From the NCBI GenBank assembly GCA_965217895.1, contig CBDCJV010000002.1, forward strand, positions 320,001 to 384,000: 64,000 nucleotides of DNA. Direction: 5' to 3'. This DNA comes from Waterburya sp. Its GTDB lineage: Bacteria > Cyanobacteriota > Cyanobacteriia > Cyanobacteriales > Xenococcaceae. The notes beneath the pieces are model-generated. The model was given only the letters and a program-made list of their open reading frames with translations, was not told where the DNA came from and did no database searches. Shown here piece by piece: positions 13,298-61,624 of this stretch. The translations under genes were made by a program, and so were the position numbers. The first letter of the stretch is position 1. Each line of letters begins with the position of its first letter.

Positions 13298-13511
13298 GCC
13301 CCCCAGCCCCCAAGCTTGGCGAGCGACCCCGCGTCGCCGTTAGGCGCAAACGCCAGTTCCTTCGCCCTCAGCAGTCGCTCTTTGTTGGAAACCAACAAGA
13401 TCGCGCTGCTTCGTAAGTCGGGAAACCCGCCCAACGGACTGGCTTGGGAATGCGCGAGTTGGGATTTAGAGGGCTTTTGTGTAGCAAATTTGACTTCTCA
13501 GACGACCTCTA
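13298..13511. repeat. Composite GC-rich repeat with nested hairpin elements
   Basis: C-rich/G-rich outer arms; 41-nt hairpin core 13352-13443 carrying a 51-nt insert (13364-13414) that contains a second 41-nt core. Confidence 0.75.
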
Positions 13512-13665
13512 AGTAGACTTAATGGATTCTTTCGAGGTAACTGAGAAAAACTAATAAGTTACGTTTTCAAGACCTAGATACGAGGCGATTTTGTGAAACT
13601 ATGAAACCATAACCTAAACTCATTCCACGGTTAAAAACATATTTAAAATTGAGGCAAAATTTACG

Positions 13666-14022
13666 ATGACATGGACTAAAACTTTGGCTGCTGATGCCCT
13701 CGCACCTGGCACAAGACAAGTAGTAAAATTACAACAGCGATCGCTTTTATTGCTCAATGAAGCAAATAATATCTACGCGATTGATAGCATTTGCCCCCAT
13801 ATGAAGTTACCCTTGAAAAAAGGCAAAGTCACCGCAGATGGCTCGATTGTCTGTCCTTGGCATCGGAGTGAATTTGACCTTAAGACTGGCAATGTCAAAA
13901 ATTGGTGTACTTTTCCTCCTGTTGTGGGTAATATTTTAGGCAAAATTTCGGCAGAGCAATCCTTGGGAGTTTTTCCAGCAAAAGTAGAAGATGGACAAAT
14001 TCTGGTGGATTTACCCGTTTAA
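13666..14022 (+). CDS. Rieske [2Fe-2S] ferredoxin-like protein
   Basis: CPH and CPWH ligand motifs. Confidence 0.92.
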   Translation: MTWTKTLAADALAPGTRQVVKLQQRSLLLLNEANNIYAIDSICPHMKLPLKKGKVTADGSIVCPWHRSEFDLKTGNVKNWCTFPPVVGNILGKISAEQSLGVFPAKVEDGQILVDLPV

Positions 14023-14049
14023 AAATTAGAACGTTAAAGATAATTAGTT

Positions 14050-14127
14050 AAAAAACCCCCAAACTCTCGCGTATAGGCGACTTGAGCCTTTGTTTTGGCA
14101 GGTCGCTCGCCAGATTTTTTGGGGGAT
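14050..14127. repeat. Hairpin-forming intergenic element between convergent genes
   Basis: CCCCCAAA...TTTGGGGG outer arms, inner GCGACTTG...CAGGTCGC stem. Confidence 0.45.
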
Positions 14128-14327
14128 AAGCACGATTGTCTGGAATCTTAAGTCCATTTTTGACAATCAGGCGATCGCTGATATGATGATCATCTTTGAG
14201 ACTATAATCATTCTAATTTAGTTGGCGTATGGTAGTTTTGTATTGATAACCAGATTAAATGCTAATCATTACTCATTACTTTTTCCCAAAACCAACTGGT
14301 TGCTATTTAAAATGACTACAATTTACA

Positions 14328-15485
14328 TCAGGCGTGATGTAATAATTCAGTTAATTTATTCAACAACTCTTTTTCGTCATATGGTTTAGAAAAATAAGCT
14401 GAAGCTCCTAAATTCATGGCTAGTTTTTTGTGTTTTTCATTACTGCGAGAAGTCAGCATTGCTATTGGAAGATCGGCAAATTCAGGTCGCTCTTTTATTT
14501 CTTCGAGAACTCCATAGCCATTTAGTCTTGGCATTTCTAGATCGCAGATAATAGCCTGTACAGCCAGCCCGCTAATGAGCTTATCTACAGCTTCTTGACC
14601 ATCTTTGGCTTGTTCAACTTGATAACCTGCTCTTTCTAAAGTTAGACTCAGGTAACGACGTACATTAATCGAGTCATCGACTACCAAAATAGTTGGTGCG
14701 GTCTTTATGTTACTAATTTCTGGCAAATCTAAGCTAGATCGATCCTCAGCCAAGAAATTAATTGCACTTTTATCAGCTAACGCCATCGGGTCGATCAGAG
14801 GAATAACTTTACCATCACCAAAAACCACAGAACTAATTATACCAGGAGGTAAAGGAATCGGACTTTCTATGGTTCTGATAGTGGATTCTTGCTCATTCCA
14901 AAAACGTGCAATTTTTAAGGCAGCATAAGATTGTTTATCCCCAACCACTAAAGTCATCGGGCGATTAATTGTAGGTTCTCCTGTCAAATAGAGAGCATTA
15001 TGTGAACGACCATAGACAAGTATTTTTTCTACTTCTATCAGGGGAATTTCTGACTGATTCCAATCTACTGTTTTGGTGTTTTCTGAAGTTAAGATTGGCT
15101 CTAACTCCAGAGGTATTAACTCTCGAATACTATTAGCGGGAATAGCAAAAATCATGTCTCCCTGTTCAATAATTGCTACCCGTAAAATAGATAATGAAAA
15201 AGGAATTCTGAGGGTGAAAGTTGTTCCTTTTCCTGGTTCAGTAGACACCTGAACATTACCGCGAACTTCTTGCAGATTGGTTTTTACAACGTCCATACCC
15301 ACACCTCTACCTGAAAGTTCTGTAACCTGTTGTGCCGTACTAAATCCAGGCTCAAAAATGAAGTTTAGTAGTTCTGCTTCTGGTATTTGGGCTATTTCAG
15401 ATTGGGAAACGCCCATCTGACGGACGCGATCGCGAATTTTATCAAGACTAATTCCCCCGCCGTCGTCGCTTAGGGTAATGACGCT
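14328..15485 (-). pseudogene. cheA: 3' fragment of a CheA-like hybrid kinase (part of HATPase, CheW, REC)
   Basis: Frame stays open upstream of the listed ORF through ITLSDDGGGI (G1 box) to the IS4 end; FEPGFSTA, SGRGVGMDVV, CheW domain, receiver VVDD...ICDLEMP. Confidence 0.9.
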
Positions 15486-16401
15486 CTAAGTACAGGACAA
15501 AAGTTTTAAAGAATCAAAAAATTCAGACTGTTTTAAATCCAGATCTAAAAAAATAGATCGTAAGTAGTCCAAACCATAGCGAAAAATGCTTTTGGCTAAT
15601 CTTCCATGCTTCTTAATTTTAATGGGATTAGATTGATGTAACCATTCACCCATTTTGATTGCCCAGCATAGAGCCAGAGACATGAGAGCGACAAGCTTAC
15701 TTAACCGTTCTGGGTCAATAAAATGAGTAGACTCAAGACAAAATCCCCTAGTTTTGAACATTCCGAACAATGTTTCAATTGCCCATCGTTTTCCATAGTC
15801 GGAAATAGCTGTTTGAGAAGGGTCAGGGGCAACAACAATCAGCAATTCTCCGTTATCTAAACGCAGAGCAGAAACGTAAACAGAACGTCCCCAAACCCAG
15901 CGACGACCTGATAAAACCTGAGTCTGACCTGGTTTTAAGTTAGCGAAGATAATCGAAGCTCTTAAATCTTGTTTACCATTATTGATGCGATCGCTATGAC
16001 GTATTCTCAATCGAAAGGGAATAGTCGGCTCAATCAGAAGGTAAGTTAACCATTGTTTACCGACGAACTCTCGATCGCCTGTCAGAAAAGCTATTTCAGC
16101 CTCAGGAAACCTCTCATAGAAACTATCGAGTAAATCCATTCTTTCATCACTATTGGAATTACCCTTCTTCTTCAGCATTTTCCAGACGACAGGGTAGGCT
16201 ACACCTACACCATCATGAACTATTCCCAGCATCAAAATATTAAAGCGAGTTTGCCCAAATGACCATTCAGTTCTATCTGTACTTAGAACCCATGGTTGTG
16301 GAATCTCCATTATCTTCACTATTGCTTTAGCAATGACGGAGTAATCTAAGTCAAAATTACGAAAAAATCGCTGTAGACGCTTGTAACTAGAATCAGTTTT
16401 A
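15486..16401 (-). mobile_element. 5'-truncated IS4-family element, DDE transposase remnant
   Basis: DRTEW, GDREF, YGKRWAIETLFGMFK (YREK); frame open upstream (KTDSSYKRLQRFF) until cut by IS982; stop lies in the terminal CTAAGTACAGGACAAAA. Confidence 0.85.
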
Positions 16402-17932
16402 ACCTGAGTTCGGGATAAGGAAAGGGACAGGTAGTAAGCTGAAAATAACTACTTTATTCAACCAACCTGTCCTATGTTTAGTCTAGACGCTTTGTTTTGT
16501 GATGTAGATGATGTCTTGATTCAGTCGCTTCAAGTCGAGAAAGGGGTACTCCCCGCATCTGACCCGCCCAACGCGCTGAATCGCTTTTTGTCATCATTTT
16601 GAGCCTCAATGGAAAGCAAGATTGTTACATCATGGAGGAATTAAAAGAGTTAGGGCAAAAAGTCTCTGTCTGAGCGAGATTATGACAATTTTAATTGCCT
16701 TTCATCAGAATCATTATCGTACCCTCGTCAGTCGCTACAACGTGTCACAGACCCGCAACGCGCTGACTCGCAATTTCAAGCATTTCTATCTCGACTATGT
16801 AAAACAGCATTGGAATACGGCTTTTCCAGGACTTCCTAGCTATCAAAGGTTTGTCGAATGGACTCCTTCAACTCTCGTTCCCTTATGTGTCTATCTCAAA
16901 CATTGTTTTGGAAGCCCGACAGGTATTGGCTTTGTTGATGCGACTAGCCTCAAAGTTTGTCAACACGGTGGTTGTATAAGCTGGGGAAACCCCAGCATAC
17001 CCCACCGTCACAATCGCCGAATCAAACGGCATAAAGTCTTTGACGGTTTAGCTGCTCGTGGCAAAACATCAGTCGATTGGTTTTTTGGTTTCAAACTTCA
17101 TCTAATTGTTAATGAAGTTGGTCAATTATTAAATGCTCAATTAACTCCTGGCAATGTAGATGATCGTCGCCCTATTCCAGAAAGGACTTGTCCGCATCTA
17201 TTACTCAAAGGTCTTTTTGGTAAATTTTTCGCAGCTCGTGGCTATGTCTCCCAAAAGCTCGCTAATCAATTACTAGAAGAATTTGGGATTCAGTTTTTTG
17301 CTAAACCTCGGCTTCACAAGTAGCAGATAACAAGTAGCGCAGCCTGGAGGCTGCCGACGTTGCTCCGCAACGGCCAGACGCGAAGCGCGTCTGCAAGTTC
17401 AACCTCTGCCACAGCAAGCAAAGCTTGCAAAGTCGTCGAAGACGACGACATGGAGCGATAGCTCCTGTGTCAGACAAAGGGCTTGCCCGCATGTATTCAA
17501 GAGTTGAATTATTTTTTCACCTTTTCCTCATCAATGAAGAGGCTGCATATCCAACTTCGGAGTTTTTCTTAATTGCTATCTGCGCGAACGGTCGTTCGCC
17601 GCCTTTGCGAAGGAAAGTCGAGCCGCTCCACGCGGCTGCTACTTGCTACTTAACTCCGAAGGAGTTTGGTAACATGAAGAACAAGCTGATGCGTCTTCAT
17701 GACAAACTTCTTTCCCGTCAACGCTCTATTATTGAAACTATTAATGACCAACTGAAAAATATTTCTCAGATCGAACATTCTCGTCATCGATTGCGAAGCT
17801 AGCCGAAGGCATCGCCAGTCAATTTTTGCGTCAATGTTCTCTGTGGATTAATCGCTTATTGTCATCAACCAAAAAAACCTAGTCTGCGTCTTGATTGGCT
17901 TTTACCTCAATCTGCCTAACCCGAACTCAGGT
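16402..17932 (+). mobile_element. IS982-family element with both inverted repeats
   Basis: Left ACCTGAGTTCGGG at 16402, right CCCGAACTCAGGT ending 17932; no target duplication. Confidence 0.92.
16474..17919 (+). pseudogene. IS982 transposase interrupted by six hairpin insertions
   Basis: [49 protein letters not shown]; about 292 aa after removing inserts; ADRGY Asp reads Ala. Confidence 0.9.
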
Positions 17933-18072
17933 TAACTAGCTTATAGTTCCCAAAGTAAGCTAATAATCGATCGATTTACTGATAATTTTTTTTCAAGATT
18001 TGTGCAAAGGAATTTTGTCAAAGATTCTAAGGATTTATGTTGTTTAAAACACAGTCTATATTTCAATGAAAA

Positions 18073-20382
18073 TTATTTCAGTTCTTTGAATTTGTCCAAT
18101 CCTCCCAGGAATTGCTCTGTCATAAGACTCCATACGGTACGATTTTCATTGATGCGAATATTAGCCTGAACTTCCATCCCAGGCTGAAGATATTTTTTTT
18201 GTCCTTTGATCTTGAGATAGTCTTTGTCTAGCTCAATATTGGCTACATAACGGAAAAAATCATAGGGAGCTTCGGGTTTTAAGGCACTAGCACTAATAAA
18301 CTTGACTTTGCCCTTAATATCCCCATACTCACTATAGTCAAAAGCACTAATTCGCACGTCTGTAGACATTCCTTTTTCAACAAATCCAATATCTTTGGGA
18401 GTAATAAAGATTTCGGCGATTAAATTTTCTGTCGGCACAATTTGCAATACAGGACTAGCTGCCTGACCAGAAGGAGGAACGTATCCAGGATATGCCTTCA
18501 GGTCAAAAACATCTCCTGTTACAGGAGCTTTTATCGTCTGATATTTGAGGTTTTGTTCGGCACTGCTGACTTGACTATTAATTTCGGCTATTTGTTTATC
18601 GTTTTCAACGATTGTTTTATTGAGTTGACTGTCAATGTCTGCTAGTCGTTTGCTATTTTCGGCTCGTCGATCGTATAAATCTTTGGTCGAGAGAGTACCC
18701 GTATTATCTAGCTGCTCTTTAGCTTGAGAAATATCTAGGCTCAATCGCTGTTCTTCTTGCAAGAGGCGATTAATTTCTGATTGTAAGGTTGTTACCTGCT
18801 GTTGCTGGCGATCGCGTTCTAGATTACCTTGCTTGAGATCATCAACCATTGTTTGCTGGCGATCGTTAATTCTTTGTCTTTGCTGATCTACCTGAAGTTT
18901 AGCAATTCCTCCTTGTTTATAGACAGGAACAATAGCTTTTAAAGTTCCCTCTTCAATTTTCAAGCTGTCTTCAGCCTGTTGTCTTGCTTCAGTGTTACGC
19001 TCTATAATTTCTTTTAAGTTTTGTTTACCTGTAGCTAACTGCGCTCGATTGTCCCCTAGCTGAATTTTAGTTTGTTCTAGCTGTTTTTCTAGTTGTTCAA
19101 CCTCTAGTCTGGCCGAGGCGGTTCTTTGTTGCAAATCTGCTCTTGATGCTTCTAATCTAGCCTGTTGTTCTGGAGCTAGTTTTTGATTGGAATTGCCTAA
19201 AAGAGAATTAAACATTTCGTTTTCCTCTTTTAATGCTGCTCTATTGCGAGTGAGTTCTGATACTTCTCTAGGGATTTTTAAAGAGGCAATCACTTCATCA
19301 ATACTTTCGGTATCAATTTTTTCTGACATCAAGGCGCGATAAAATTTGTTTTCTTGTTGCAAAGACTGTCGCACTTTACCCAGGGAATTAACCTGAGCTT
19401 TAGAGGTTGTAGAATCTAAGACTAGTAAAACATCACCTTTTTTTACTCGTTGCCCTTCTTCTACCTTTACTTCTGCGACTACACCATTGGTAGGCACCTG
19501 TATTTCCTGTAGCTTATTAGTAGGCTGAATTATACCTTGGGCAGGAATTACTCGTTCAATCTTGGCAACCAAAGACCAAACAATGGTAAAGATAGTGACG
19601 CCCATAATTCCTGCCATAGTGGCTCTAGACCATCTAGGAGAAGGACGCAAAATTACTGTTTGCTCAAACTTGCGAGATTTAATTGAGGCAGGATCTCGTT
19701 TAATTAAAGAACCATTATCCCCAGAGGCTGTAGTAACAAGCTGTCCAGGGGGATAAGAGCGTTCTTTGAGAGTTTGAGTTTCTGTCTGACTTTTGATTAC
19801 CAACGGAGATATTGCAGGGAGCTTGTTAGCTTCTTGCGTTTGAGGCAAGGCTAGGTTGCGATAAATTCCTGGCCCAATTTGAGCATAACCACGATGTACC
19901 GATCTAATCGCATCGGTAAGTTCTTTGGCGGGAGTGCCTTTGAGTAAATAACCCATTGCTCCAGAGCTAAGAGAGCGAGCAACATATTCCTCAGTATCAA
20001 AGGTACTAAGCACCAATACTTTAACGTCAGAAAATTTCTGGCAAATGATTTTAGTTGCTTCCATGCCGTTCATTCCCGGCATCTCCATATCCATCAAAAC
20101 AACATCAGGCTCAAGTGACTGTACCTGTTTTACAGCGTGTTCGCCATTTTCAGCAACGCCAACTATTTCAATATCTGTTTCTGTTTTGATTAGGGCTTTT
20201 AATCCTTCCCTAATCATTTTTTGATCGTCAACGATTAAAATACGAATTGAACTATTAGAAGAATCGACAGCACGATCATTTCCATAATTAGATTGCCCTT
20301 GATTAAGCAATTTATCCCGTTTAGGTTGAGGCAAACTATTGCCTGAAAGGTAGTCGGTGCTACCATTGCTAGATGAGTTCAT
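18073..20382 (-). CDS. Response-regulator receiver fused to a HlyD-family secretion adaptor
   Basis: NarL-type REC (IVDD, LMDMEMP, LLKG), TM helix, lipoyl-like half motifs, long coiled coil, IKAPVTG, YGDIKG, LQPGM. Confidence 0.9.
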   Translation of the reverse strand: MNSSSNGSTDYLSGNSLPQPKRDKLLNQGQSNYGNDRAVDSSNSSIRILIVDDQKMIREGLKALIKTETDIEIVGVAENGEHAVKQVQSLEPDVVLMDMEMPGMNGMEATKIICQKFSDVKVLVLSTFDTEEYVARSLSSGAMGYLLKGTPAKELTDAIRSVHRGYAQIGPGIYRNLALPQTQEANKLPAISPLVIKSQTETQTLKERSYPPGQLVTTASGDNGSLIKRDPASIKSRKFEQTVILRPSPRWSRATMAGIMGVTIFTIVWSLVAKIERVIPAQGIIQPTNKLQEIQVPTNGVVAEVKVEEGQRVKKGDVLLVLDSTTSKAQVNSLGKVRQSLQQENKFYRALMSEKIDTESIDEVIASLKIPREVSELTRNRAALKEENEMFNSLLGNSNQKLAPEQQARLEASRADLQQRTASARLEVEQLEKQLEQTKIQLGDNRAQLATGKQNLKEIIERNTEARQQAEDSLKIEEGTLKAIVPVYKQGGIAKLQVDQQRQRINDRQQTMVDDLKQGNLERDRQQQQVTTLQSEINRLLQEEQRLSLDISQAKEQLDNTGTLSTKDLYDRRAENSKRLADIDSQLNKTIVENDKQIAEINSQVSSAEQNLKYQTIKAPVTGDVFDLKAYPGYVPPSGQAASPVLQIVPTENLIAEIFITPKDIGFVEKGMSTDVRISAFDYSEYGDIKGKVKFISASALKPEAPYDFFRYVANIELDKDYLKIKGQKKYLQPGMEVQANIRINENRTVWSLMTEQFLGGLDKFKELK

Positions 20383-20804
20383 AGTTTAAATAATTAGTAA
20401 CTTCGTGTCAGTTTTTAGTTTCGAGCCAGTTGCTAAAAAAAACAACAATTGTAGTTAGCTAGGTCACACAGAATATCTTTAAGCACTTTTGCTTGAGTCT
20501 CGATCTTATAAATTGATACTATTTTGAAAGAAATATACTAATACACATCACCCGTTACCAAATTTTGGTATAAATTACAAATTAAATACATCAGAATAAC
20601 TTTTAATATTTAACATAACTAGTCCTTTATAACTAATATTTTAGATATTCGACATAAAAAAATTCCAATTGGCAGAGGGTTAATTGTTTTCTAATGTCTT
20701 GATAGTGTTCTATAGCCACAACATAAAGTAAAAAGCTGAAATAATTTTCTTTAATCATTACAAACCGACAGCGATCGCTTTTTCTAATTGATGACACACC
20801 CTAG

Positions 20805-23393
20805 TTACGAGTTCAGAATCAATTGCCGACGATGTACATTAAGTAACTGAAATTCAAGATTAGCAATCTTTTCCAGCATATAAACCAGATTATCTGGCGA
20901 TAGGTTTGTACCATCATTGCGACAGCTACCAGTAAAGTGAATTATTGCTTTGTTACCCTCTTCAGATTCTAAAGAGAGAGAAAACAGGCGATCGCATAAA
21001 TTAACGACTTTTTTATTCCCTGACTTGGTAAATTTTTCCCATAATATTTCTTGACTGTTGTTAATAGCATCTATCCACTTTTCCCAGGTTGCATCTATAT
21101 TTTCTTCTGTCTGTACCGTAATCAAATACTCTGCTTTATCCATCAAACGACTAGCATTCAAAGACTTGGGATCGACATCTTCGACTTGATAAATCGGAAT
21201 ATTCTCTGGTAGCTGGGCAGCTAATTTAGTGCGAAATTCTTCTACATCCATGTCTTCTGTCAATTCAAAATCAACAATTTCACCATTACTAGTAATTCCC
21301 AAAGACAAGGCATTGGCAATAGAAATCTTAGGTCCTGGATGATATCCGCCAGTAAAAGAAATAGGCAAGGCTGAACGACGAATTGCGCGATCAAATAGAC
21401 GAACTAAATCTAGGTGGCTGATTAAGCTCATTTCAGCTATTTTTCCGAACCACATTCTGATTTTTTGTTCTTTGTGCTGATTAGGTTTAAAATGTCCTGC
21501 AAAGTTAGGAATTTCAGGCGGTTTAACAACAATATTGTGTCCGAAATCTGTACCGCAAACACCACAATGAGAACAACCTTCATAGGCGCAGTCAGGCACA
21601 GTAGCAGCGTCTAAAGCTCTCTGCAAGTCTTCTTTTAGCCATTGTTTATCTATCCCTGTATTGATATGATCCCAGGGTAAAGGCGCATCAGTGGCATCGG
21701 CAATAGAGGTCGCTGTATCGGCATCTAAAAATATATTCCATTCACCATCTTCTACCTGACGATATTTCCAGGTTAAATCCGCTTCAGCGATCGCCTGTGA
21801 CCAAGCACCATAGGCTTTATCTAAATTTTCCCACCAGGAATCCATGCCTGCGCCTAATTCCCAAGCCCGTTTGACTACAGAGGCTAAACGGCGATCGCCT
21901 CTACCGACAAAATCTTCCATGGCTGAGATACGCACATCTGTGTAGTTGATTTTTACACCTTTGATACGGCGAAATTCTTCTTTGAGTAATTCTTGTTTGC
22001 GTCGAAACTCACTGGTAGATACGGAGTGCCACTGAAAAGGCGTATGGGGCTTAGGAGTAAAGTTAGAAATAGTAATATTAAAGTTAAGGCGTTTACTACT
22101 AAGCTGACTACACTCACGGCGTAACCAGCGCACCGTTTCAGCAATACCAGCTACATCTACATCAGTTTCTCCAGGTAAACCGATCATGAAATACAGTTTG
22201 ACCTTATTCCAGCCACGGGCAACGGCAGTTTGGATACCTCTGAGTAGTTCTTCGTTAGTTAATCCTTTATTCACTACATCTCGCATTCGCTGTGTACCAG
22301 CTTCGGGGGCAAAGGTTAGCCCAGACTTTCTCAAGCCACCAATGATATCGGCAATGTTGTCATCAAAGCGATCGACTCGCTGGCTAGGCAGAGACAGAGA
22401 TATATTCTCTTCTTGCAAGCGATTTTTGATCTCCATACCCACAGCAGGTAGTGCTAGATAATCAGAGCAACTCAAAGAAAGTAAAGAGAATTCATTATAG
22501 CCAGTGGCACGCATTCCTTTTTCAATTGCATCTACCACTTTGTCTGGTTCAACATCCGTCGCTGGGCGAGTTAACATTCCTGGCTGACAAAAACGACAAC
22601 CACGGGTGCAGCCTCTTCTTATTTCTACCGTAAGGCGATCGTGTACGGTTTCAATAAAGGGAACTAAGCCAATAGAATAGGCAGGAATAGGCGTAGCAAC
22701 CCGACGCAATATACGTTTAGGTACTTTAGGAGTAGTAGGATGAACTGAGCCATCTTGCGCCATTTCATAGAATCTGGGGACGTATACTCCAGGAACTTGC
22801 GCTAGATCTAGCAATAAATCTGCTTTACTTAGTCCTGCTGCCTTAGCCTCTTTGATAACCAAACCAATTTCGGGTAAAAGTTCTTCTCCATCACCCAAAG
22901 CAATAAAGTCAAAGAAATCTGCATAGGGTTCGGGGTTAGAGGTAGCAGTTTGTCCTCCTGCAAAGATCAACGGATAATCCCCTGTCTCTCTTTCCTTCCA
23001 GGTAAGGGGAATATTCGCCAAACTCAGCATTTCTAAAATATTGGTCGCTCCTAACTCATAGCTAAGGCTAAAGCCTAGAATATCAAAGTCTAAAAGCGAT
23101 CGCTTTGATTCTAAAGCAAACAAAGGAGTATTAGTCTCTCTTAACTTAGCTGATAAATCGGGTGCAGGAAGATAAGTGCGATCGCATAACTGCTGAGGTT
23201 GAGCATTAATTATATTGTAGAGAATAATATGACCCAGATTTGATGCCCCTACCTCATAGACTTCAGGATAAGTCAGCACCCAACGCACCTCAGCTTCTGT
23301 CCAAGGCTTATGGACTGCGCCAAGTTCGTTGCCCAAGTATCTGGCTGGCTTAGCTATATTGGCATCAACAAGGTTGTCAAAGGTAAGGGTCAA
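20805..23393 (-). CDS. TIGR03960-type radical SAM protein fused to a TIGR03936-type C-terminal domain
   Basis: KPARYLGNE, RGCTRGCRFC, FAPEAG, CSHCGVC, SHLDL...FTGGYHP; TTG start. Confidence 0.92.
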   Translation of the reverse strand: MTLTFDNLVDANIAKPARYLGNELGAVHKPWTEAEVRWVLTYPEVYEVGASNLGHIILYNIINAQPQQLCDRTYLPAPDLSAKLRETNTPLFALESKRSLLDFDILGFSLSYELGATNILEMLSLANIPLTWKERETGDYPLIFAGGQTATSNPEPYADFFDFIALGDGEELLPEIGLVIKEAKAAGLSKADLLLDLAQVPGVYVPRFYEMAQDGSVHPTTPKVPKRILRRVATPIPAYSIGLVPFIETVHDRLTVEIRRGCTRGCRFCQPGMLTRPATDVEPDKVVDAIEKGMRATGYNEFSLLSLSCSDYLALPAVGMEIKNRLQEENISLSLPSQRVDRFDDNIADIIGGLRKSGLTFAPEAGTQRMRDVVNKGLTNEELLRGIQTAVARGWNKVKLYFMIGLPGETDVDVAGIAETVRWLRRECSQLSSKRLNFNITISNFTPKPHTPFQWHSVSTSEFRRKQELLKEEFRRIKGVKINYTDVRISAMEDFVGRGDRRLASVVKRAWELGAGMDSWWENLDKAYGAWSQAIAEADLTWKYRQVEDGEWNIFLDADTATSIADATDAPLPWDHINTGIDKQWLKEDLQRALDAATVPDCAYEGCSHCGVCGTDFGHNIVVKPPEIPNFAGHFKPNQHKEQKIRMWFGKIAEMSLISHLDLVRLFDRAIRRSALPISFTGGYHPGPKISIANALSLGITSNGEIVDFELTEDMDVEEFRTKLAAQLPENIPIYQVEDVDPKSLNASRLMDKAEYLITVQTEENIDATWEKWIDAINNSQEILWEKFTKSGNKKVVNLCDRLFSLSLESEEGNKAIIHFTGSCRNDGTNLSPDNLVYMLEKIANLEFQLLNVHRRQLILNS

Positions 23394-25307: not shown

Positions 25308-25313
25308 TCAGGA

Positions 25314-52791: not shown

Positions 52792-52923
52792 GGGAAAATA
52801 AGTGTCGTGTAGTTACGCCGATAATAACTATTATTATTGCTCTAAATCTGAAAATTTTTTACACTTTGGCAAAATTTAATTTTGTATCTACCTTAGTTAT
52901 TAACTGTAAATTTACTGGTTACG

Positions 52924-55065
52924 CTAGTCAGATTTTCTGACGATAAAATTACTAAAGCCACTGCCCGTATCATTTCCCCACTCCCAATTAGCGACGATGC
53001 CAAGGCGATTAATCTTTAAAGCAGTAGCCCAGGGATAAACATCGCTCAGAGCGCGATATAAAACGGTTTGATTGTTTACTCGTACCGAATAATTATTACC
53101 ATCAAAAACTACCCTAAGAGTATAAGGTTGCCCAAAAGCGATCGCCCGACCAATATTTGACCACACCGCATCATAAATCTCTTCAAAGCCAGCAATACGG
53201 AAGAAACAGGAAATTGACTCCCCTTCATAAAAGTCATCCAGCCAGGTATTGATAATGATGTAATTATCTCGATCCTGCCAAAAAATTAGACCGCCTCGTC
53301 CTTTTTCTCCTTGACCTCGTTCTTTTCCAGGAGGAACAATAGTAACTGACACATCAGCAATAAAATTGTCTACCGCCACAGTATATGCTGTGCGATCTGG
53401 ATTAGGATTGGCAACGTCGGCTTTTACTTTAGCAATGCCAAATTGTAAAATTTCAAAGACACCTTTGCCAATAGTTTTTTGCCAGACTTGGTTACCTAAT
53501 AAGGTAGTCTTGCCGCTTAAATCTCCCTCCCAGTTTGTAAAATCATCTTCGATGACAATATCATTGCCTTCTCGCCACCAGGGCAAATCAAAATCGAGAG
53601 TGGGAAGAGTTACGGTACGGGGATGAGCTTCAAAATTCTGTAAATACATATCAGAATTTTCTTGAGATATAGCTATACCTACACCTGTTGCCGTTGCTAA
53701 TCGTTCGTCGGTACAATTGCCAATTAGCTGACCATCAAAATAGATTTTTAATTCTTGTCCATCATCTAATATTTGCAGATAACCAACTCCATTGGCAATG
53801 GAAAAGTCTTCAGCATAGACCAATACTTCTTTTTGTCCAGCTTCAATCAACTGAAGACATATTCTAGTGTCGTTAATCTCACAACACCAATAGTTATTTT
53901 GATCTTGAAATCTCCAGACTATGCCTATGGTAGCTGATTTATCTTCTAAGGCGATCGCGCTACCCTTGCCAACGGTGACAGCAGGCTCCGTCCGTTTAGG
54001 GCGGAGTAATCTGTTACTGCTAAGGCAAATCCTAGCGTGCAATAGTCCCGAAGTTGCTTGAGGCTTTAAAATCCCTAGACTGTTATTTTCCGTGGCTATC
54101 AAGCCTTCTTCGGTGCGCTCAAAACTACCAGTAATAATCTGCCAAGCTCCCCCTACCTCAGCAGGAATAGAGGCAAGATTTCCTGTTCCTATTAAGGCAT
54201 CTGCACCATGAGCCGTACCATACCAGGTCGCTAATGCTGGAATAGTTTCGACCTTTACTCCATAGACTCTGGTATCGGCACGAAAGCCAATTTGACCGAG
54301 GACGCTTTGATGAACACCTGCGTAGAGAGTTGGTTCAAGATTAACAGCATCAATGGCTACTGGACGAAGCTGGGGAAAACTCGGTAAGCCATAAACCTGT
54401 GGTATAGAAGCTGCATAGTAAGCTGCCCCTTGCTCTCTTAAAATCACCACGTAACATACAGGAACATTCTGTAGTCCCCGTAAAATCGAGAGTAGTTTTG
54501 TACCTACTTGGGCTAGTAACTCGCCGTTTTCTGCTCCCGTGGCGCGAACAACAAAATTATTGGCGTTTTCAAGTAGGTTACTGGGTACGGCATCAGTAAA
54601 CCAACCCACTGCCAAATTATCATTAATTTTAGGTAGGGGGAAAAACTTAGTTACCTCTGCTGCCATGCGAAACCAACTAAGTAAACGTCTTGGTGTCGCT
54701 GATTTGTGCTGGCTTCCCAACCAGACAGTAACTCGTTTAAATATTGATTCAGTTTCGCTACCCTTTAACCATTGAGGAATCCTTTTATAGAGCCATTCAA
54801 TCGTCTCAGCCTGAGAAGTATTATGACCATTAAGCAGCAATACCGCCATAGTCAATCCATTTGCACGCTGATATTTGCCGTAGGCAATACCCTGTCTACC
54901 CCAACCAGGTTGAATTAAAGGCTTAAAACGTAGAGCATGATTGTCAATGGCGATCGCTTTTTCTCGATCTATTCCTTTTCTTTCAACACCAGCAGTCGTT
55001 TTACTGCCAATAGTTTTACCACTACTGCGATCGTCTGGAAAACTATCAACAAAAGATTCATTCAT
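52924..55065 (-). CDS. Large beta-rich hypothetical protein, lectin/LamG-like repeats suspected
   Basis: Repeated (G)IVWRFQDQNNY / GLIFWQDRDNY modules; in the polysaccharide cluster. Confidence 0.7.
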   Translation of the reverse strand: MNESFVDSFPDDRSSGKTIGSKTTAGVERKGIDREKAIAIDNHALRFKPLIQPGWGRQGIAYGKYQRANGLTMAVLLLNGHNTSQAETIEWLYKRIPQWLKGSETESIFKRVTVWLGSQHKSATPRRLLSWFRMAAEVTKFFPLPKINDNLAVGWFTDAVPSNLLENANNFVVRATGAENGELLAQVGTKLLSILRGLQNVPVCYVVILREQGAAYYAASIPQVYGLPSFPQLRPVAIDAVNLEPTLYAGVHQSVLGQIGFRADTRVYGVKVETIPALATWYGTAHGADALIGTGNLASIPAEVGGAWQIITGSFERTEEGLIATENNSLGILKPQATSGLLHARICLSSNRLLRPKRTEPAVTVGKGSAIALEDKSATIGIVWRFQDQNNYWCCEINDTRICLQLIEAGQKEVLVYAEDFSIANGVGYLQILDDGQELKIYFDGQLIGNCTDERLATATGVGIAISQENSDMYLQNFEAHPRTVTLPTLDFDLPWWREGNDIVIEDDFTNWEGDLSGKTTLLGNQVWQKTIGKGVFEILQFGIAKVKADVANPNPDRTAYTVAVDNFIADVSVTIVPPGKERGQGEKGRGGLIFWQDRDNYIIINTWLDDFYEGESISCFFRIAGFEEIYDAVWSNIGRAIAFGQPYTLRVVFDGNNYSVRVNNQTVLYRALSDVYPWATALKINRLGIVANWEWGNDTGSGFSNFIVRKSD
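53954..54028. mobile_element. 75-bp in-frame hairpin insertion at a HIP1-like site
   Basis: Nested stems TTGCC/GGCAA, GTGACAG/CTGTTAC, CTCCGTCC/GGGCGGAG. Confidence 0.6.
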
Positions 55066-55187
55066 TCCAACCTACTTATTCTTGTACGTGAATTTAAGGC
55101 GCAAAAAGCAAATTTTTCACCTTAACTCGACAGTTATAACCAAATTTCTCAATTAGGACAGTCTCTTACAGTTTACTTGTGGTTTTC

Positions 55188-55218
55188 ACTGCCCTAACTG
55201 CCCTAACTGCCCTAACTG
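55188..55218. repeat. 9-bp tandem repeat (ACTGCCCTA)x3.4
   Basis: Perfect copies just downstream of the ligase-family gene. Confidence 0.9.
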
Positions 55219-55226
55219 TTGTTAGA

Positions 55227-56501
55227 TTAATCGTAAATTTTATAATCGTTGTTCTTAGCGATAACTAGGGAATAAGATATTGCTGCATAAATCGCCCAAA
55301 AAGAACTACTCATACTATTTATTGTTCCCTCAGTCAAATTAGATAATAGAACATAGCTTAAAAACAAAAGAGGCCAAAACCCTTCTGGGTTATTTGTTCT
55401 TCTCAATAAAGCTAAAGATTGAGCTATTGTAACCACAAAGCCGATCAAAAAAACAGCTAAGCCGATAATCCCTATCGACAACCAAATATCTAAAAATCCA
55501 TTGTGAGCATAAATTACGCCTATCCCCATTGCTAATTGTATATAGCCAGAAGGGCCCTCAAAACCATTCCAAAATGCTGAAAATCCATAACCCAACCATG
55601 GGTGCAACTGAATTTGATCCCAAACGTATCTCCAGATTAAGGTTCTGCCCGATAATGTTGTATCTTTACCTACAGAACTAGTGAGTGCATCCTCGCCTAC
55701 GTATCCAGCCAAATAAATCAAACCACCAACACCAACAATAACTACAGCTAAAACTGCCGAAATCATTACCTCATATCGCCAGCGGAAGATACGATAAACC
55801 ATGCACAGCATTAACATAATTGAAAATGTCCCTAAAGCTGTTGTGGACTGAGACAGTACCATTGCAGTACAGCTAAGAATCAGCAAAAACCAATAAATCC
55901 AGCTATTTTTTTGATTACCCAAGGCATTTAAGAAGAAAACTACGCCTGAAGGAGCCATAAATGCACCAAACTGATTTTTATGAGTAAATACGCCACGCCA
56001 TGCCCCTTCATGAACTCCACCCATCAGACCATATTTAGGTATTGCCACTACAAACAAAATACTTAGAATCAATAACAATGCATAAGTCCAAGCCAGCAAA
56101 TTCATCTGTTCGGACAAAGTATAACGGGTTGCAAAATAAAGTCCAAAAGCGGTGCTGCCAAGAGCATAAACAGCAAATCTAAAAGTTTGAGGCGGGTTAA
56201 TAGACCAAAAAACGGAAAAACAAACAATTCCCATTAATATCCAGAGCAACTTATTGCTAAAAAGTACGGGGAGAACTCTTTTCCATCTTATTGCCAAAAG
56301 AATAAACGTCACAAAGTAAACCAGCAAAGACATTTTGGCATTGAGGGACAAATCATATGTACTTATTGCTATACCGTCACCTTCATTTGCTCCTCTGGTC
56401 AAAAGTAGGGGAGTAATAGCTTCGGATAGATGAAATAAAGCGGCTATTGAAAAAACAAATTCAAAATTTTTGAACGTTTTGTTGGTATCTTTTGTCATCA
56501 T
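55227..56501 (-). CDS. O-antigen ligase / Wzy-like polymerase
   Basis: GVFTHKN, TLSGRTLIW, PWLGYG, AHNGFL. Confidence 0.92.
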   Translation of the reverse strand: MMTKDTNKTFKNFEFVFSIAALFHLSEAITPLLLTRGANEGDGIAISTYDLSLNAKMSLLVYFVTFILLAIRWKRVLPVLFSNKLLWILMGIVCFSVFWSINPPQTFRFAVYALGSTAFGLYFATRYTLSEQMNLLAWTYALLLILSILFVVAIPKYGLMGGVHEGAWRGVFTHKNQFGAFMAPSGVVFFLNALGNQKNSWIYWFLLILSCTAMVLSQSTTALGTFSIMLMLCMVYRIFRWRYEVMISAVLAVVIVGVGGLIYLAGYVGEDALTSSVGKDTTLSGRTLIWRYVWDQIQLHPWLGYGFSAFWNGFEGPSGYIQLAMGIGVIYAHNGFLDIWLSIGIIGLAVFLIGFVVTIAQSLALLRRTNNPEGFWPLLFLSYVLLSNLTEGTINSMSSSFWAIYAAISYSLVIAKNNDYKIYD

Positions 56502-56909
56502 AGCTGTTCATTTAGCTTAATTTACTGATAGAAAGTTTTGATATAAAGATAGATATTATAATAAATCCTCAAGTTTAAATTGGCACACTTTGCCAACTTA
56601 AGTGCTTAAGCAATTAATACTAATTGTGTACTCATAAAATAAATGTTGAAGTCATTAAAAGGTTAGATATATCGCCAACAAACCTGCGTTTATTGTAGTG
56701 GTGACTTGACTTTAATCATATCAAACATAATCTAATCCTTTGAGTAAATTAAAGGCGATCGCCTGACTGATGGTAAGCCAAGAGTTACCGCTGATAAAAG
56801 ATTGATAACTCCCTCAATATAAAAAACTATAGTTTTATATTTATTATATTTATTGTCTGGCTTTGGTTAATAATGGAAGTATAAATTGCCAATAAATAAC
56901 AGTTGAGAC

Positions 56910-57737
56910 TTGAAAGACTATCTCAAGGGCGAATTAATTAACCTTCGCCGTAAAGTTGATTTACAGGTTAGCTATCATGCTGGAACTAAGCCAGGATTAG
57001 TTTTTTTGCATGGTGGATTGGGAAATAGATTTAACTGGCGATCGCAATATGAATTTTTTGGCGATCGCCATAGGGAAGTATTGGCTTACGATCTGGCGGG
57101 ACACGGACAGTCTAGTGCTTACGCACGCTATTCTGTGGGCAGACATTGCCGTGATTTAACTCGTTTACTCAAACGCTATCAGATTAAGTCGCCAATTCTT
57201 TGTTGTCATAGTTATGGTGTCCCTTTAGGTTTAGAGTGGGCAAGATACAATTCAGCTACAGCCCTGGTTTTGATCGCCGGCGGCACTCACGATCTTGCAC
57301 CTTGGTGGGAAATTCCCCTAATTAAGTTTTTAGCTTGGGGAGGCAGACACCTTTATCGCTTTCCCCAAGTACAGTCTTGGACAAACCGTTTATCTAGCAA
57401 TCATCAAGGCAAAAAAATAGAACAGTTTTTGGCAGAAAGTCCTGTTCCTCTTGAACCCTATCCCTACGAAGCGTTAGAAATTTTTTGGGGTTACAATTTT
57501 TGGCAACGTCACCAAACGCCGATGAAAAAGAAAATACCTATCTTAGTAATTAGTGCTGGTCAAGACTCCATGTTTACAGAACAGATGGGAGAAGAATTGG
57601 CAAATAGTTTTCAGCTAGGACAACATTTACATTTGCCAGAAGCGGGACATCTATTGATTGCCGAATATCCCCAGGTGGTAAATCAAGCGATCGCCGAGTT
57701 TATCAAGCAAGTAAATAGTGTAAATCGAACCAATTAG
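56910..57737 (+). CDS. Alpha/beta hydrolase
   Basis: FLHGG, DLAGHGQS, HSYG nucleophile elbow, GQD, AGH. Confidence 0.92.
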   Translation: MKDYLKGELINLRRKVDLQVSYHAGTKPGLVFLHGGLGNRFNWRSQYEFFGDRHREVLAYDLAGHGQSSAYARYSVGRHCRDLTRLLKRYQIKSPILCCHSYGVPLGLEWARYNSATALVLIAGGTHDLAPWWEIPLIKFLAWGGRHLYRFPQVQSWTNRLSSNHQGKKIEQFLAESPVPLEPYPYEALEIFWGYNFWQRHQTPMKKKIPILVISAGQDSMFTEQMGEELANSFQLGQHLHLPEAGHLLIAEYPQVVNQAIAEFIKQVNSVNRTN

Positions 57738-57830
57738 AGGCATGGATACATTTTACTCTAGGAGCAAATTCAGGTTATTTTTGGAATAGCCTGAACTAGG
57801 CTTTGTATAATTCAAAGCAAATTCTTGATA

Positions 57831-58436
57831 ATGTACAAACTGTATGATTTTCTACCATCTGGAAATGGCTATAAAGTCCGACTATTACTGACTCTTTTAG
57901 ATATTCCTTTTGAAAGAATTGAGCTTAATATTTTAAAGCGAGAAACTAGAACACCAGAATTCCTTAAGAAAAATACCAATGGTAAAATTCCTTTATTAGA
58001 AATCGATCCAGATAAATTTTTAGCCGAATCAAATGCAATTTTGTATTATCTTAGCCAGGGAACAGAATATTTTCCGCAGAATAATTATGTTCAAGCCCAG
58101 GTAATGCAGTGGCTTTTTTTTGAACAATACAGTCACGAACCTAATATTGCTACTGCTCGTTTTTGGATTAGCGTTCTCCAGCAACCAGAGAAATACGAGG
58201 AACAGCTAAAACAAAAACATAAGTTGGGCAATTCTGCATTGAGTATGATGGAACAGCATTTAAGCAATCATAAGTTTTTTGTCGGCGATATTTATACCAT
58301 CGCTGATATTGGTTTGTATGCCTATACTCATGTAGCAAATGAAGGAGGATTTGACTTAAGTAAATATCCAGCCATCCTAGCTTGGTTCAAACGCATCGAA
58401 GCGCACCCAAAACATATTCTAATCACTAATACTTAA
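57831..58436 (+). CDS. Glutathione S-transferase family protein
   Basis: SGNGYKVRL, GKIP, ESNAIL, TIADI. Confidence 0.95.
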   Translation: MYKLYDFLPSGNGYKVRLLLTLLDIPFERIELNILKRETRTPEFLKKNTNGKIPLLEIDPDKFLAESNAILYYLSQGTEYFPQNNYVQAQVMQWLFFEQYSHEPNIATARFWISVLQQPEKYEEQLKQKHKLGNSALSMMEQHLSNHKFFVGDIYTIADIGLYAYTHVANEGGFDLSKYPAILAWFKRIEAHPKHILITNT

Positions 58437-58596
58437 GCTATTTTCCTCCTTACAAAAATAAAGAATTTTCAAAAGTCACATATCGAGGTAAAGTAATTTC
58501 AGCCTAATATACAGACGAAATATTTATCTTCCAGGCTAGAGGAATTTTGTAGTTCCTAACTTATGCTTATATTTTCCAAATAATTATTAACTTAAG

Positions 58597-59652
58597 ATGA
58601 ATCGAAGAAAACTATTATCAACACTGAGCGTATTTGTTCTCAGTTTAGTTTTAACTATTAGCTGTTCTCAAACTCCTAAGACTTCTCAATCTGCCGATCC
58701 GAGTACTACTACGCCTAGTACACCTAAAGGAGATGCTATTGTTATTGGCTATAGTAACTGGGCTGGCTGGTGGCCTTGGGCGATCGCCGAACAAGAAGGC
58801 TTGTTTGCCAAAAATGGTGCGAATGTCCAAATGAAGTGGTTTGACGGCTACATAGAATCAATGGAGGCTCTTGCTGCTGGTCAATTAGATGGTAATTGTC
58901 AAACTCTTAACGATACAATTTCTTTTGCTGGGGATGCGGTTAATGGGGAAGTAGCAATTTTAGTTAATGATAATTCAGCAGGTAATGACAAAATTATCGT
59001 TACCAAAGATATTAATAAAATTGAAGATTTAAAAGGCAAAAAAGTTGCTATCGAAGAAGGGGTAGTAGACGATTTCTTGTTAACTTTAGCTTTAGAATCC
59101 AAAGGCATGAAGCGCAGTGATGTAGAGATTGTTCCTTTGGAAACTGGGGCTGCTGCTGCTGCTTTTGCTTCAGGACAAACCGATGCAGTGGGTGCTTTTC
59201 CGCCGTTTTGGTTGACTGCTCTAAAACGAGAGGGTTCTAAAGAATTAATTTCCTCAAAAGCTTTTCCTGGAGCAATTCCCGATTTATTAGTAGTTACCCA
59301 AAAGCTGATTGATGAAAAGCCAGATCAGGCACAAGCACTGGTTAATACTTGGTTTGATGTCTTAGATTTTATGGCACAAAACCCAGAAAAAGCCGATGAA
59401 ATTTTGGCGACTAGGGCAGATGTCACAGTGAAAGAACTTCAGATGTTTAAAGAGGGAACTAAAATATTTACCATTGAAGAAAATTTAGAAGCCTTTAGCG
59501 ATGGAGATAGTATGAAACATATGCCTTTTTCTGCCAAAAAAATGTCTAAATTTATGGTTGATGTTGATTTTATTCCTGAAGCACCAGATTTAACTAACAT
59601 CTTAGATAGCCAGTTTGTTCAGTCTTATGCTAAATCTGCATCTGCTAAATAG
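58597..59652 (+). CDS. ABC transporter substrate-binding lipoprotein (SsuA/NMT1-like)
   Basis: Lipobox TISC; WAGWWPW, DNSAGND, DLKGKKVA. Confidence 0.9.
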   Translation: MNRRKLLSTLSVFVLSLVLTISCSQTPKTSQSADPSTTTPSTPKGDAIVIGYSNWAGWWPWAIAEQEGLFAKNGANVQMKWFDGYIESMEALAAGQLDGNCQTLNDTISFAGDAVNGEVAILVNDNSAGNDKIIVTKDINKIEDLKGKKVAIEEGVVDDFLLTLALESKGMKRSDVEIVPLETGAAAAAFASGQTDAVGAFPPFWLTALKREGSKELISSKAFPGAIPDLLVVTQKLIDEKPDQAQALVNTWFDVLDFMAQNPEKADEILATRADVTVKELQMFKEGTKIFTIEENLEAFSDGDSMKHMPFSAKKMSKFMVDVDFIPEAPDLTNILDSQFVQSYAKSASAK

Positions 59653-59866
59653 ATATTTTAGAAATCAATTATTTTCAGTTATCTGAGTACAATTTGGACA
59701 ATAAGTAGCTGAAGCATTTTAATTAATACTTCGGCTACCTATACTATCTTAAATAGCCCAAAAAAACTAAATTTTTTTTGTATCAAATTCTATTAATTGT
59801 TATCTAGTTTACTATTAATATTAATTAAATCGACTAAGATTAAAATACATATATATCGTATATATA

Positions 59867-60706
59867 ATGTCTAATATAGTATCTGAAAGCGATTCAGCAA
59901 AAGCCGTAAAATCTAGTTTAAAACCAACTATTATTTGGCGTATAGCCGAAAATATTCCTCAGTCATTATTTTGGTCTTTAGCTGGTTTATCAGTCGCCAT
60001 TCCTTTATTAGCTTGGTTATTATTATCTAAATATTCAGGGATAGAATCAATCTTTTTACCATCTCCCAAAGATGTAATTGAAGCTGTGAGAGAACTCTGG
60101 TCAAAAGGATATTTAGCTACTGATTTTTTAGCTAGCTTTGCTAGAGTAAGCATCGGATTTCTCCTGTCGGCTATAGTTGCAGTTCCTGTAGGTATATTAA
60201 TGGGAACCTTTGCCAGTATTCGAGCTTTATTTGAACCAATTATTGGCATTGTCCGCTATATGCCCGCGCCAGCTTTTATTCCTCTTTTGATTATTTATCT
60301 TGGTATCGGTGAAACTCCTAAAATTGCTCTAATATTTATTGGTACGGTGTTTTTTAATATCTTAATGATTATGGACAGCGTTAAGTTTGTACCACAAGAT
60401 TTAATTGAAACAACCTATACTCTAGGAGGCAACCGCTGGCAGGTATTGTCTGAAGTAATTACTCCTCATGTTGTTCCGCGTATTATCGATACATTTCGGG
60501 TAAATATGGCTGCTTCTTGGAACTTGGTGGTAGTAGCAGAGCTACTTGCTGCCAACGAAGGTTTAGGTAAAAGAATTTTGTTAGCTCAAAAGTTTTTGAG
60601 AACCGATGAAATCTTCGCCTGTTTAATTATCTTAGGCTTAATTGGTTTTGCGATCGATTTGTTTTTTCGCCTATTGGTTCGATTCACTTGCAAATGGGCG
60701 TTTTAG
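59867..60706 (+). CDS. ABC transporter permease (SsuC/TauC-like)
   Basis: FLPSP, RYMPAPAFIP, ETTYTLGG, VAEL...GLG. Confidence 0.93.
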   Translation: MSNIVSESDSAKAVKSSLKPTIIWRIAENIPQSLFWSLAGLSVAIPLLAWLLLSKYSGIESIFLPSPKDVIEAVRELWSKGYLATDFLASFARVSIGFLLSAIVAVPVGILMGTFASIRALFEPIIGIVRYMPAPAFIPLLIIYLGIGETPKIALIFIGTVFFNILMIMDSVKFVPQDLIETTYTLGGNRWQVLSEVITPHVVPRIIDTFRVNMAASWNLVVVAELLAANEGLGKRILLAQKFLRTDEIFACLIILGLIGFAIDLFFRLLVRFTCKWAF

Positions 60707-60739
60707 GCGTTTTAAATCAACAATTAGTAATTAGTAGTA

Positions 60740-61624
60740 ATGCACTTAGAAATATCTCAATTATATAAGCAGTTTCTGGTTAAGAAAGAACCTCTTGTCG
60801 CGCTTAAAGATATCAATATGCACGTTGAGACAGGAGAATTTGTCTGTGTAGTTGGAGCGTCAGGTTCGGGAAAGTCAACCCTCTTAAGACTAATTGCGGG
60901 CTTAGATACTCCTACTTCTGGGACAATCACGGTTGATAATGAGCCTGTTATCGGACCAGGTGCCGATCGAGGCATGGTATTTCAAAAATATACTCTTTAC
61001 CCTTGGATGTCTGTTCAAAAAAATGTCGAGTTTGGTTTAAAACTGCTTGGAATAACCCCTCGCAAAAGACGAGAATTGGCTTCTTATTACTTAGATATAG
61101 TAGGTTTGGCAAAATTCGCCCAATCATTACCCAAAGAGCTTTCTGGAGGGATGAAACAGCGAGTGGCGATCGCACGAGCTTTAGCGACTAAGCCTAAAAT
61201 ACTTTTAATGGACGAACCCTTCGGCGCGTTAGATATTCAGACTAAAGAAAATATGCAGCAGTTTCTCTTAGAAATTTGGCGCAAAACAGGCTGCACTATT
61301 TTAATGATTACCCATGATGTAAGAGAGGCAGTATTTTTGTCTCAAAGGATTTATGTTCTCTCTGCCAGACCAGGAACAGTCAAACAAGAGTTTAAGATTA
61401 ACTTCCCCAGCGATAAACCTACTTACGAAGTTTACTCAACAGAGAGAACTTCCCTAAAGGGTTCAGCAGTTTCTTCAAGCGGGGAAAACCCGCCAACGAA
61501 CTGCTTCACCGCAACGCAACTTCGCGCTAATGGCATGGCTACGCTACGCAATTATCAAATAAAACGTCAGCCTATTTTTCATAAACAGGTCGAGGATATC
61601 ATGGACTTATTGAGAAACATCTAG
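60740..61624 (+). CDS. ABC transporter ATPase with a 44-aa C-terminal insertion
   Basis: GASGSGKS, LSGGMKQR, LLMDEPF, ITHD. Confidence 0.95.
   Translation: MHLEISQLYKQFLVKKEPLVALKDINMHVETGEFVCVVGASGSGKSTLLRLIAGLDTPTSGTITVDNEPVIGPGADRGMVFQKYTLYPWMSVQKNVEFGLKLLGITPRKRRELASYYLDIVGLAKFAQSLPKELSGGMKQRVAIARALATKPKILLMDEPFGALDIQTKENMQQFLLEIWRKTGCTILMITHDVREAVFLSQRIYVLSARPGTVKQEFKINFPSDKPTYEVYSTERTSLKGSAVSSSGENPPTNCFTATQLRANGMATLRNYQIKRQPIFHKQVEDIMDLLRNI
61415..61546. mobile_element. 132-bp in-frame nested hairpin insertion splitting a HIP1 site
   Basis: Removal restores GCGAT|CGC; contains the 41-nt core at 61465-61505. Confidence 0.8.

Follow-up and report, generated by a model that had tools for sequence, protein, structure and literature searches.

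What are the short bulged hairpins that recur along a 64,000-nucleotide stretch of Waterburya sp. DNA (assembly GCA_965217895.1, contig CBDCJV010000002.1, positions 320,001 to 384,000; hereafter the window, with coordinates counted from its first letter), and what could move them? The original prediction described five hairpin cores between 13352 and 61505 as a structure-defined mobile unit larger than the small dispersed repeats (SDRs) of Nostoc, and this description is borne out by further copies, by covariation, and by clean empty sites. At least 94 copies occur in the genome under study (G000; 39% GC, with HIP1 sites), and many more in its relatives, here 39 congeners and two sets of 151 genomes drawn from the phylum and from the order. 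Comparison of filled and empty alleles shows precise insertion, without duplication or deletion, of a strictly Watson–Crick hairpin with fixed ends. The family is real and mobile, and differs from the SDRs in length, modular ends, range, and targeting.

The coordinates and stems of the five cores (13370–13410, 16727–16767, 61465–61505, 13352–13443, and 16520–16580) all agree with the sequence, and 13352–13443 is a 41-nucleotide (nt) core once the inserted 13364–13414 is removed. A sixth member, a decayed 42-nt core at 61426–61524 that hosts the 61465 copy, had been overlooked. The layout proposed for all copies stands in its invariant bulged T, but not in its fixed length and letters: cores span 40–42 nt, and the CAG varies (CAA, CAC, AAG, and TAG occur), the core invariants being one A–T pair, the bulged T, and a 3′ A-N-C. 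Two insertion units had been given as exactly 51 bp; the length and 13364–13414 are correct, whereas the second unit is 16721–16771 rather than 16720–16770, because empty alleles retain the T (CGT^AAT). Other units measure 45 nt (13350–13445 minus its insert), 53 nt (16512–16584 minus 20), and 57 nt (61452–61508). With an inner part of 23 nt, the strict layout is seen three times un-nested in the window and in none of 300 order-3 Markov simulations, and the T/C bulge pair yields 19 matches genome-wide versus 0–3 for each of the 15 other letter pairs. The genome-wide count comes from a relaxed descriptor with 97 matches, of which three were discarded by eye as background; the 94 retained are a lower bound, because two end modules of class C (below) alone occur 41 and 16 times.

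From its foot upward, the core has an outer stem of 5 bp, the bulged T, a middle stem of 3–4 bp, and an internal loop that is rich in CAA and keeps a conserved C; at the apex, an inner stem of about 6 bp is closed by a 3-nt loop that is free in sequence and fixed in length, giving 40–42 nt in total. The mobile unit is not the 41-nt core that had been proposed; the actual unit is the 40–42-nt bulged hairpin together with class-specific ends, which distinguish class D (RC..TY, 45 nt), class A (RMCCTC..TCGC, 51–52 nt), class B ((T)KTCTTGA..TCGC, 51–53 nt), class C (CCCT(n)GGGTTC..TCA, 55–58 nt), and the minor classes C2 and E. The 45-nt form predominates in Nostocales. Ends and inner hairpins reassort, since nine combinations of end class and inner hairpin type occur. 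In G000, the 5′ end module of class C is followed by TTC 41 times and by TA once; a 45-nt core entering a free 12-nt host was considered for class C and rejected.

Covariation in the stems is strong and compensatory, as predicted. Pairing was counted over 42 type I copies of about 130 (36 chosen by a pairing-independent pattern and six from G000), which provide 41 distinct rows; 97.6% of cells pair, versus 24–44% in slid controls, and 101 cells are changed on both sides versus three one-sided, wobble cells, a result that none of 500 shuffles reaches. These counts are to be read as support and not as a probability, because kin are not independent. At one stem pair followed over 122 copies, CG occurs 37 times, TA 84 times, TG never, and CA once. 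Folding energies are alike on both strands, and mismatch counts are few, so neither strand stands out as the functional one. The near absence of G–U pairs (101 versus 3) points to DNA rather than RNA as the form in which the hairpin is recognised.

The clean empty sites that were sought in relatives have been found. Of 103 cores from three congeners, 87 are classifiable and non-duplicate; for 36 of these 87 units, an orthologous or paralogous empty allele in G000 differs by exactly the unit, and for the other 51, no empty allele was found in G000. Within G000 too, several of the hosts and each of the two IS982 sites have empty alleles. The family lands in its own copies, in repetitive extragenic palindromes (REPs), heptamer repeats, HIP1 sites, and insertion sequence (IS) genes; it also enters ordinary genes, in frame. 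Most copies are intergenic, and 17 of the 94 lie within long open reading frames (ORFs). Every one of the 13 units lying in a coding frame has a length divisible by three, versus 23 of 62 elsewhere (p 1.8e-5), which argues that frameshifting copies are purged and that the element is not spliced out. Orientation relative to transcription shows no bias (29 versus 22). By adding 15–44 codons to working genes and inactivating IS elements, the family shapes how proteins and the mobilome evolve in one major clade of cyanobacteria.

The first of three clusters in the window, all on the forward strand, is a 156-nt composite (13305–13460, boundaries approximate) in which a REP-like host repeat, found elsewhere in the genome without the insert, carries a class D and a class A unit; an X1 contig joins 13304 to 13461 across it, the letters in between not being known. 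The class D unit (AC-core-TT, 45 nt; 13350–13445), for which 45-nt empty alleles read CGCAA^GGGAA, contains the nested 51-nt class A unit (GCCCTC-core-TCGT, with a type II inner hairpin; 13364–13414), inserted at C^AAG in the internal loop of its host. This class A unit has a second copy at C2:802543, and joints skipping 51 nt are seen in runs X3 and X4. Over 12800–17400, runs X1 and X2 contain contigs from a second related strain at similar depth.

The second cluster lies in an inactivated IS982 (16402–17932), identified by NCBIfam NF033520, paralogues, and terminal repeats, which carries two members of the family along with further small inserts. Its class B unit (16512–16584; TGTCTTGA-core-TCGC, 53 nt, to which a nested element adds 20) frameshifts the transposase, and precisely these 73 nt are missing from a sister IS982 whose flanks are identical; in two relatives (L334 and L337), an un-nested 41-nt version of the core occupies the corresponding, homologous site of IS982. 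Its class A unit (ACCCTC-core-TCGC, 51 nt, subtype GTCAG/CGC; 16721–16771) is in frame at the target TATCGT^AATTT, which is empty in IS982 paralogues, and contigs of run X4 hold an IS982 near-identical to the window copy without both family inserts.

The third cluster lies in frame inside an ABC transporter ATP-binding gene (60740–61624; Pfam PF00005), where orthologue comparison delimits a 132-nt composite at a HIP1 site (GCGAT^CGC; 61415–61546) that holds two nested family members. A decayed class E core of 42 nt (CGAAG/TTAC; 61426–61524) is split by a 57-nt class C unit (CCCTAAAGGGTTC-core-TCA; 61452–61508), inserted at ^CC in the inner stem of its host; the same architecture recurs at C2:616627, and 57-nt empty alleles exist for the class C unit. 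The HIP1 site is empty in 10 of 14 orthologues, and the other four carry different inserts (33, 57, 84, and 138 nt). The site (61415–61546 and L002, L003, L004, L006, and L194) is a recurrent hotspot for different small in-frame elements in at least six lineages.

The range of the family was surveyed with a model, R1, whose counts are lower bounds because it was trained on only six type I copies, undercounting type II, and scored 40 candidates per genome in the large searches. In the phylum draw, 26 of 151 genomes match, including 20/22 in group f7, 0/6 in f18, and 0/57 in f33; in the order draw, 33 of 151 match, and many copies are found mainly in f7 (8/8), f19 (6/7), and f1 (4/7). Matches occur in 36 of the 39 congeners (0–95 each), and R1 found none in the other three congeners or in the large f18 genomes. 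An exact-pattern scan found at least 120 loci, and among the matches listed, the 80 rows with names are without exception cyanobacterial, Nostocales for the most part, from which we infer that f7 is Nostocaceae. Beyond the congeners, the range thus takes in Nostocales and one further family. Named records sharing the end classes belong to Pleurocapsales and Xenococcaceae, and 12 plasmid records match, including that of a laboratory Anabaena, Trichormus variabilis ATCC 29413, in which the copy is unannotated; viral contigs and phage records gave no match. This sharp distribution (f7, f19, and 36 congeners versus three congeners and f18) suits a presence/absence screen for the mobiliser.

At the level of sequence, related subtypes have been shown to favour related targets. 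Junction preference differs by class, being mostly C^AA in class A, ^TT in class B, ^CC in class C, and weak in class D, and the target letters shared within a class amount to only 1–3 bases. Subtype GTCAG/CGC has 13 exact matches within the genus, nine of which sit at TATCGY^AATT (seven in IS982 and two in a non-homologous IS6 gene); this site is occupied by none of the 30 inspected copies of subtype GACAG/TCC (33 matches), 14 of which sit in type II family members. The class B site of IS982 is filled in five copies from four genomes, by one subtype throughout. The class B elements of G000 and G020 agree at all 53 positions, and their flanks differ at 23 of 157 (codon positions 4/2/17); because the element is identical and the flanks have diverged, the frameshifting element probably arrived after the IS982 lineages split. 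An element identical to the G020 IS982 insert is found in an unrelated IS6 gene, the common target comprising only about 12 bases. When homologous loci are collapsed and most nested loci removed, leaving small samples, element similarity correlates with that of the nearest 13 target bases in class A (rho 0.22, p 0.007, n 31) and in class C (rho 0.31, p 0.009, n 17), and far-flank similarity does not correlate with it in either class. A simple base-pairing rule between stem and target was sought by eye and by mutual information, and none was found.

These patterns allow the tentative suggestion that the family may represent a class of DNA transposons of about 50 nt, whose target choice would be heritable in the outer stem or the donor junction and whose mobiliser would lie outside IS200 TnpA, REP-associated tyrosine transposases (RAYTs), reverse transcriptases, IS110, and IS91. 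On this view, a subtype would find the same site of 10–12 bases again even where the genes are unrelated. If true, such a heritable-target element would amount to an insertion system that is minimal, retargetable, and scar-free, and would name the missing mobiliser of SDR-type repeats. Against heritable targeting stand four observations: the near-target correlation in class D is weak and is equalled by its far-flank control; one host site is filled by seven subtypes; 18 copies of the favoured 11-mer are empty in G000; and only one of seven inner branches of the IS982 tree is strongly supported, repeated gain and precise loss not being separable on it. In a separate observation on IS982, copies in G020 (L042, L046, L053, and L057) have, just behind the start codon, an insert that is about 50 nt long and contains a GAACCCGAATGCATTCGGGTTC hairpin; this insert has the same position in four diverged IS982 copies and is not present in L049, a near-identical sister of L057.

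As for the mechanism, we give an even chance to a non-autonomous, SDR-like DNA element that is folded as single-stranded DNA and is cut and joined at the feet of its hairpin by a strand transferase acting in trans, by analogy with known systems. For IS608, PMC5027513 describes an end hairpin with an extrahelical T, excision that is precise, and a guide located at the foot of the hairpin. The bulged T of the present family would similarly be a contact point for recognition of the folded strand, cuts at both hairpin feet would be followed by joining into a single-stranded target in the "peel-and-paste" manner of HUH enzymes, and base contacts made with the element or with its donor junction would bias the choice of target. 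The enzyme, presumably encoded elsewhere, would be neither a canonical IS200 TnpA nor a RAYT, and would probably be a clade-restricted or host protein unlinked to the elements.

A number of results weigh against this transposition in trans, beginning with the failure to find a mobilising enzyme at all. Across genomes, none of the mobilisers named in the original prediction (RAYT, IS200 TnpA, reverse transcriptase, and IS110) follows the distribution of the element. The richest congeners (G000, where no intact copy was found, G017, and G020) lack IS200 TnpA and the three element-free ones have it; across the 39 congeners, its presence is uncorrelated with copy number (rho −0.11, p 0.51). The RAYT model matches 92 of 151 genomes, including all six element-free f18 genomes, and no RAYT was found in the element-rich G049 and G169; none of 30 RAYT loci holds a family copy. 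No autonomous version or linked gene was found among 321 loci, no distant arm pairs enclosing an ORF were found in G000, flank frequency tables reveal no conserved guide tetranucleotide at the hairpin foot, G000 has no clear GC skew for reading a replication-strand bias, and the assembled contigs contain no circle or excision product. The IS91 Y2 profile matched in none of five genomes, but its control was likewise silent, so that this result carries no weight. Each of the other mobiliser results lowers rather than excludes a candidate, because several genomes in the presence/absence comparison are draft assemblies (G049 and G079 among them) and an enzyme may have been lost after a burst. To our knowledge, no mobiliser of the very small cyanobacterial repeats has been named since 2008; the exact ends, dozens of filled and empty pairs, the covariance model, and the sharp distribution now make the question testable.

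The RAYT-type genes of G000 are one frameshifted RAYT (L131:1462–1980; C2:2354800–2355250), between GTAGGGTGG REPs, and one RAYT-like gene, which with a truncated duplicate and GTAGGGGCG REPs lies on either side of a toxin–antitoxin-type ORF (L372), each with GTAG REPs of its own. The recurring neighbours among the 321 loci are host genes only, namely TnpB (13), IS982 (10), IS4-like (7), and genes that we take from their sequence to be Uma2-like (7), a label not confirmed by NCBIfam. The tnpB genes, which are probably tolerant multi-copy DNA, hold family members that in many cases lie close to conserved motifs of the RuvC region or to the 3′ end, and sometimes form tandem pairs (L159, L162, L192, L202, L209, L228, L255, L256, L267, L292, and L293). 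Inverted pairs in G179 and G195 were examined as candidates and proved to be ordinary genes or duplicated IS copies.

Flank-guided homing would dispense with a dedicated transposase: a single-stranded hairpin carrying a few donor-flank bases would anneal, at a fork or gap, to a site that matches them and be fixed by repair, the hairpin merely protecting or compacting the piece. Such homing would account for one subtype at the same base of diverged IS982 lineages and in all five filled copies of that site, for the identical element in the unrelated IS6 gene, and for the reassortment of ends and inner hairpins. However, it leaves the invariant ends and bulge unexplained, as well as insertion at sites with only 1–3 bases common to any donor; moreover, the junction-adjacent base (C or T) follows the target lineage and the 18 favoured 11-mers are still empty, and we consider homing unlikely. 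A route through RNA, with a reverse transcriptase of the group II intron or retron type making the copy and inserting it, would suit the common GAAA-type loops, the eight reverse transcriptase matches in G000, and the absence of target duplication, which is also a property of retrohoming. RNA had been allowed as the recognised form in the original prediction, but this is disfavoured by the three wobble cells against 101 double changes, by loops of 3 nt and free sequence, by the lack of orientation bias to transcription, and by the failure to find PF00078 in two of five rich genomes, the drafts G049 and G079, despite 25 and 39 element matches of 40 scored; the RNA route is judged improbable. 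The same low standing is given to a site-specific recombinase acting on folded DNA or on a 2-nt core, in the manner of integron attC/IntI or of IS110 and its bridge. The extrahelical bases and unpaired central spacer of attC would be its precedent, and the first one or two bases of the unit often equal the first target bases (A^A, T^T, and C^C), yet the junctions lie outside the hairpin rather than within the stem, no GTT/AAC core is present at the foot, many class D insertions share no base at all, and IS110 was not found in two of the five rich genomes (G049 and G179).

Two further readings would deny the hairpins a mobility of their own or an effect inside genes. Terminator or RNA-stability hairpins might be carried passively in larger MITEs (miniature transposable elements with inverted repeats) or IS elements and homogenised by gene conversion, as many copies do lie inside larger repeats that are themselves mobile, and a T run often stands 3′ of class B. 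This is very doubtful, being already contradicted by sister alleles, in unique genes and hosts, that lack the exact unit alone; in addition, one host site holds seven subtypes, orientation is unbiased, and no terminator was called at the 13350 cluster. An intron-like element, removed from RNA or bypassed and hence silent inside genes, would explain why copies lie within conserved parts of TnpB, IS982, and other genes, and why the frameshifting class B unit is present in lineages of IS982 with flanks that diverged under purifying selection; nevertheless, it is hardly credible against the frame-keeping of all 13 coding units.

Among known repeats, SDRs are closest to the family. The SDRs of Elhai et al. 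2008 (SDR1–8) are reportedly small dispersed repeats of 21–27 nt in Nostoc punctiforme and relatives. The family resembles them in being tiny, gene-less, and structured with compensatory changes, in inserting precisely and nesting in itself, in its concentration in Nostocales, and in having no known mobiliser; it works like SDRs yet is about twice as long, its units of 45–58 nt exceeding the reported SDR length, which only the nested 21–23-nt element (below) fits. Its two-tier bulged hairpin, modular ends, and subtype-linked target preference also set it apart from the SDRs. Heptamer repeats, minitransposons, and HIP1 sites are contexts that the SDRs reportedly share with it. SDRs are treated in PMC5861425 and PMC4390886; according to the former, no SDR-like repeat was found outside Nostocaceae, whereas the present family is abundant there. 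The literature covered by our search, which included neither the 2008 paper of Elhai et al. nor Table S4 of PMC3542288, returned no description of the family, and the five core strings matched only an unrelated listing in literature text. It is quite possible, though less likely than not, that the family was already noted in the 2008 SDR work, because it is abundant in Nostoc.

Other systems share single traits with the family. The Rickettsia palindromic elements are hairpin repeats tolerated in frame inside protein-coding genes, a tolerance that the family shares, although it is much shorter, belongs to another phylum, and is mostly intergenic. Unlike integron attC sites, the family has no GTT/AAC R box at the stem base and has its junctions outside the stem, and the 321 loci yielded no family of linked ORFs. 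Rfam 15 returned no family model for the window at E up to 1. Like REPs and their REPIN pairs associated with RAYTs, the family consists of short imperfect hairpins, dispersed and in nested clusters, with variable ends around a conserved core; REP/REPIN hairpins carry a GTAG or CGTC tag (PMC3733652), whereas flank tables place neither at the foot of the present hairpin, which is not found beside RAYT genes and enters GTAG REPs as a guest. With IS200/IS605 elements, the family shares the absence of target duplication, the bulged T, and a right end, TCRC, that resembles the left side of the target (IS608 model, PMC5027513), but it is one hairpin rather than two ends, has no fixed 4–5-nt target with a matching guide, and does not follow TnpA in copy number. 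Cyanobacterial MITEs (Nezha, MaeMITE, and those of Anabaena) are described in PMC3184786 and PMC3542288 as 77–541 bp long with terminal inverted repeats, and Nezha also with flanking direct repeats; the family is likewise non-autonomous and structured, with filled and empty sites, but is at most 58 nt long, has unpaired ends, and shows no target duplication in empty alleles.

The remaining inserts of the IS982 belong to other families. The nested 23-nt element at 16538–16560 (forward strand) is a member of a separate 21–23-nt hairpin family (A[CG]AAAGG..CCGCAT[GC]T) with 69 copies in the genome, including 17179–17199 and 17474–17494, which appears to replace about three target bases rather than insert cleanly; the near-identical IS copy in run X4 has a net 18 nt fewer at 17182, a site of this hairpin family. 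The same IS982 also contains a 48-nt palindromic insert (16959–17006) and a multi-copy, MITE-like element of about 360 bp (17313–17672), and it stands head to head with an IS4-like DDE transposase ORF (15486–16319, reverse strand).

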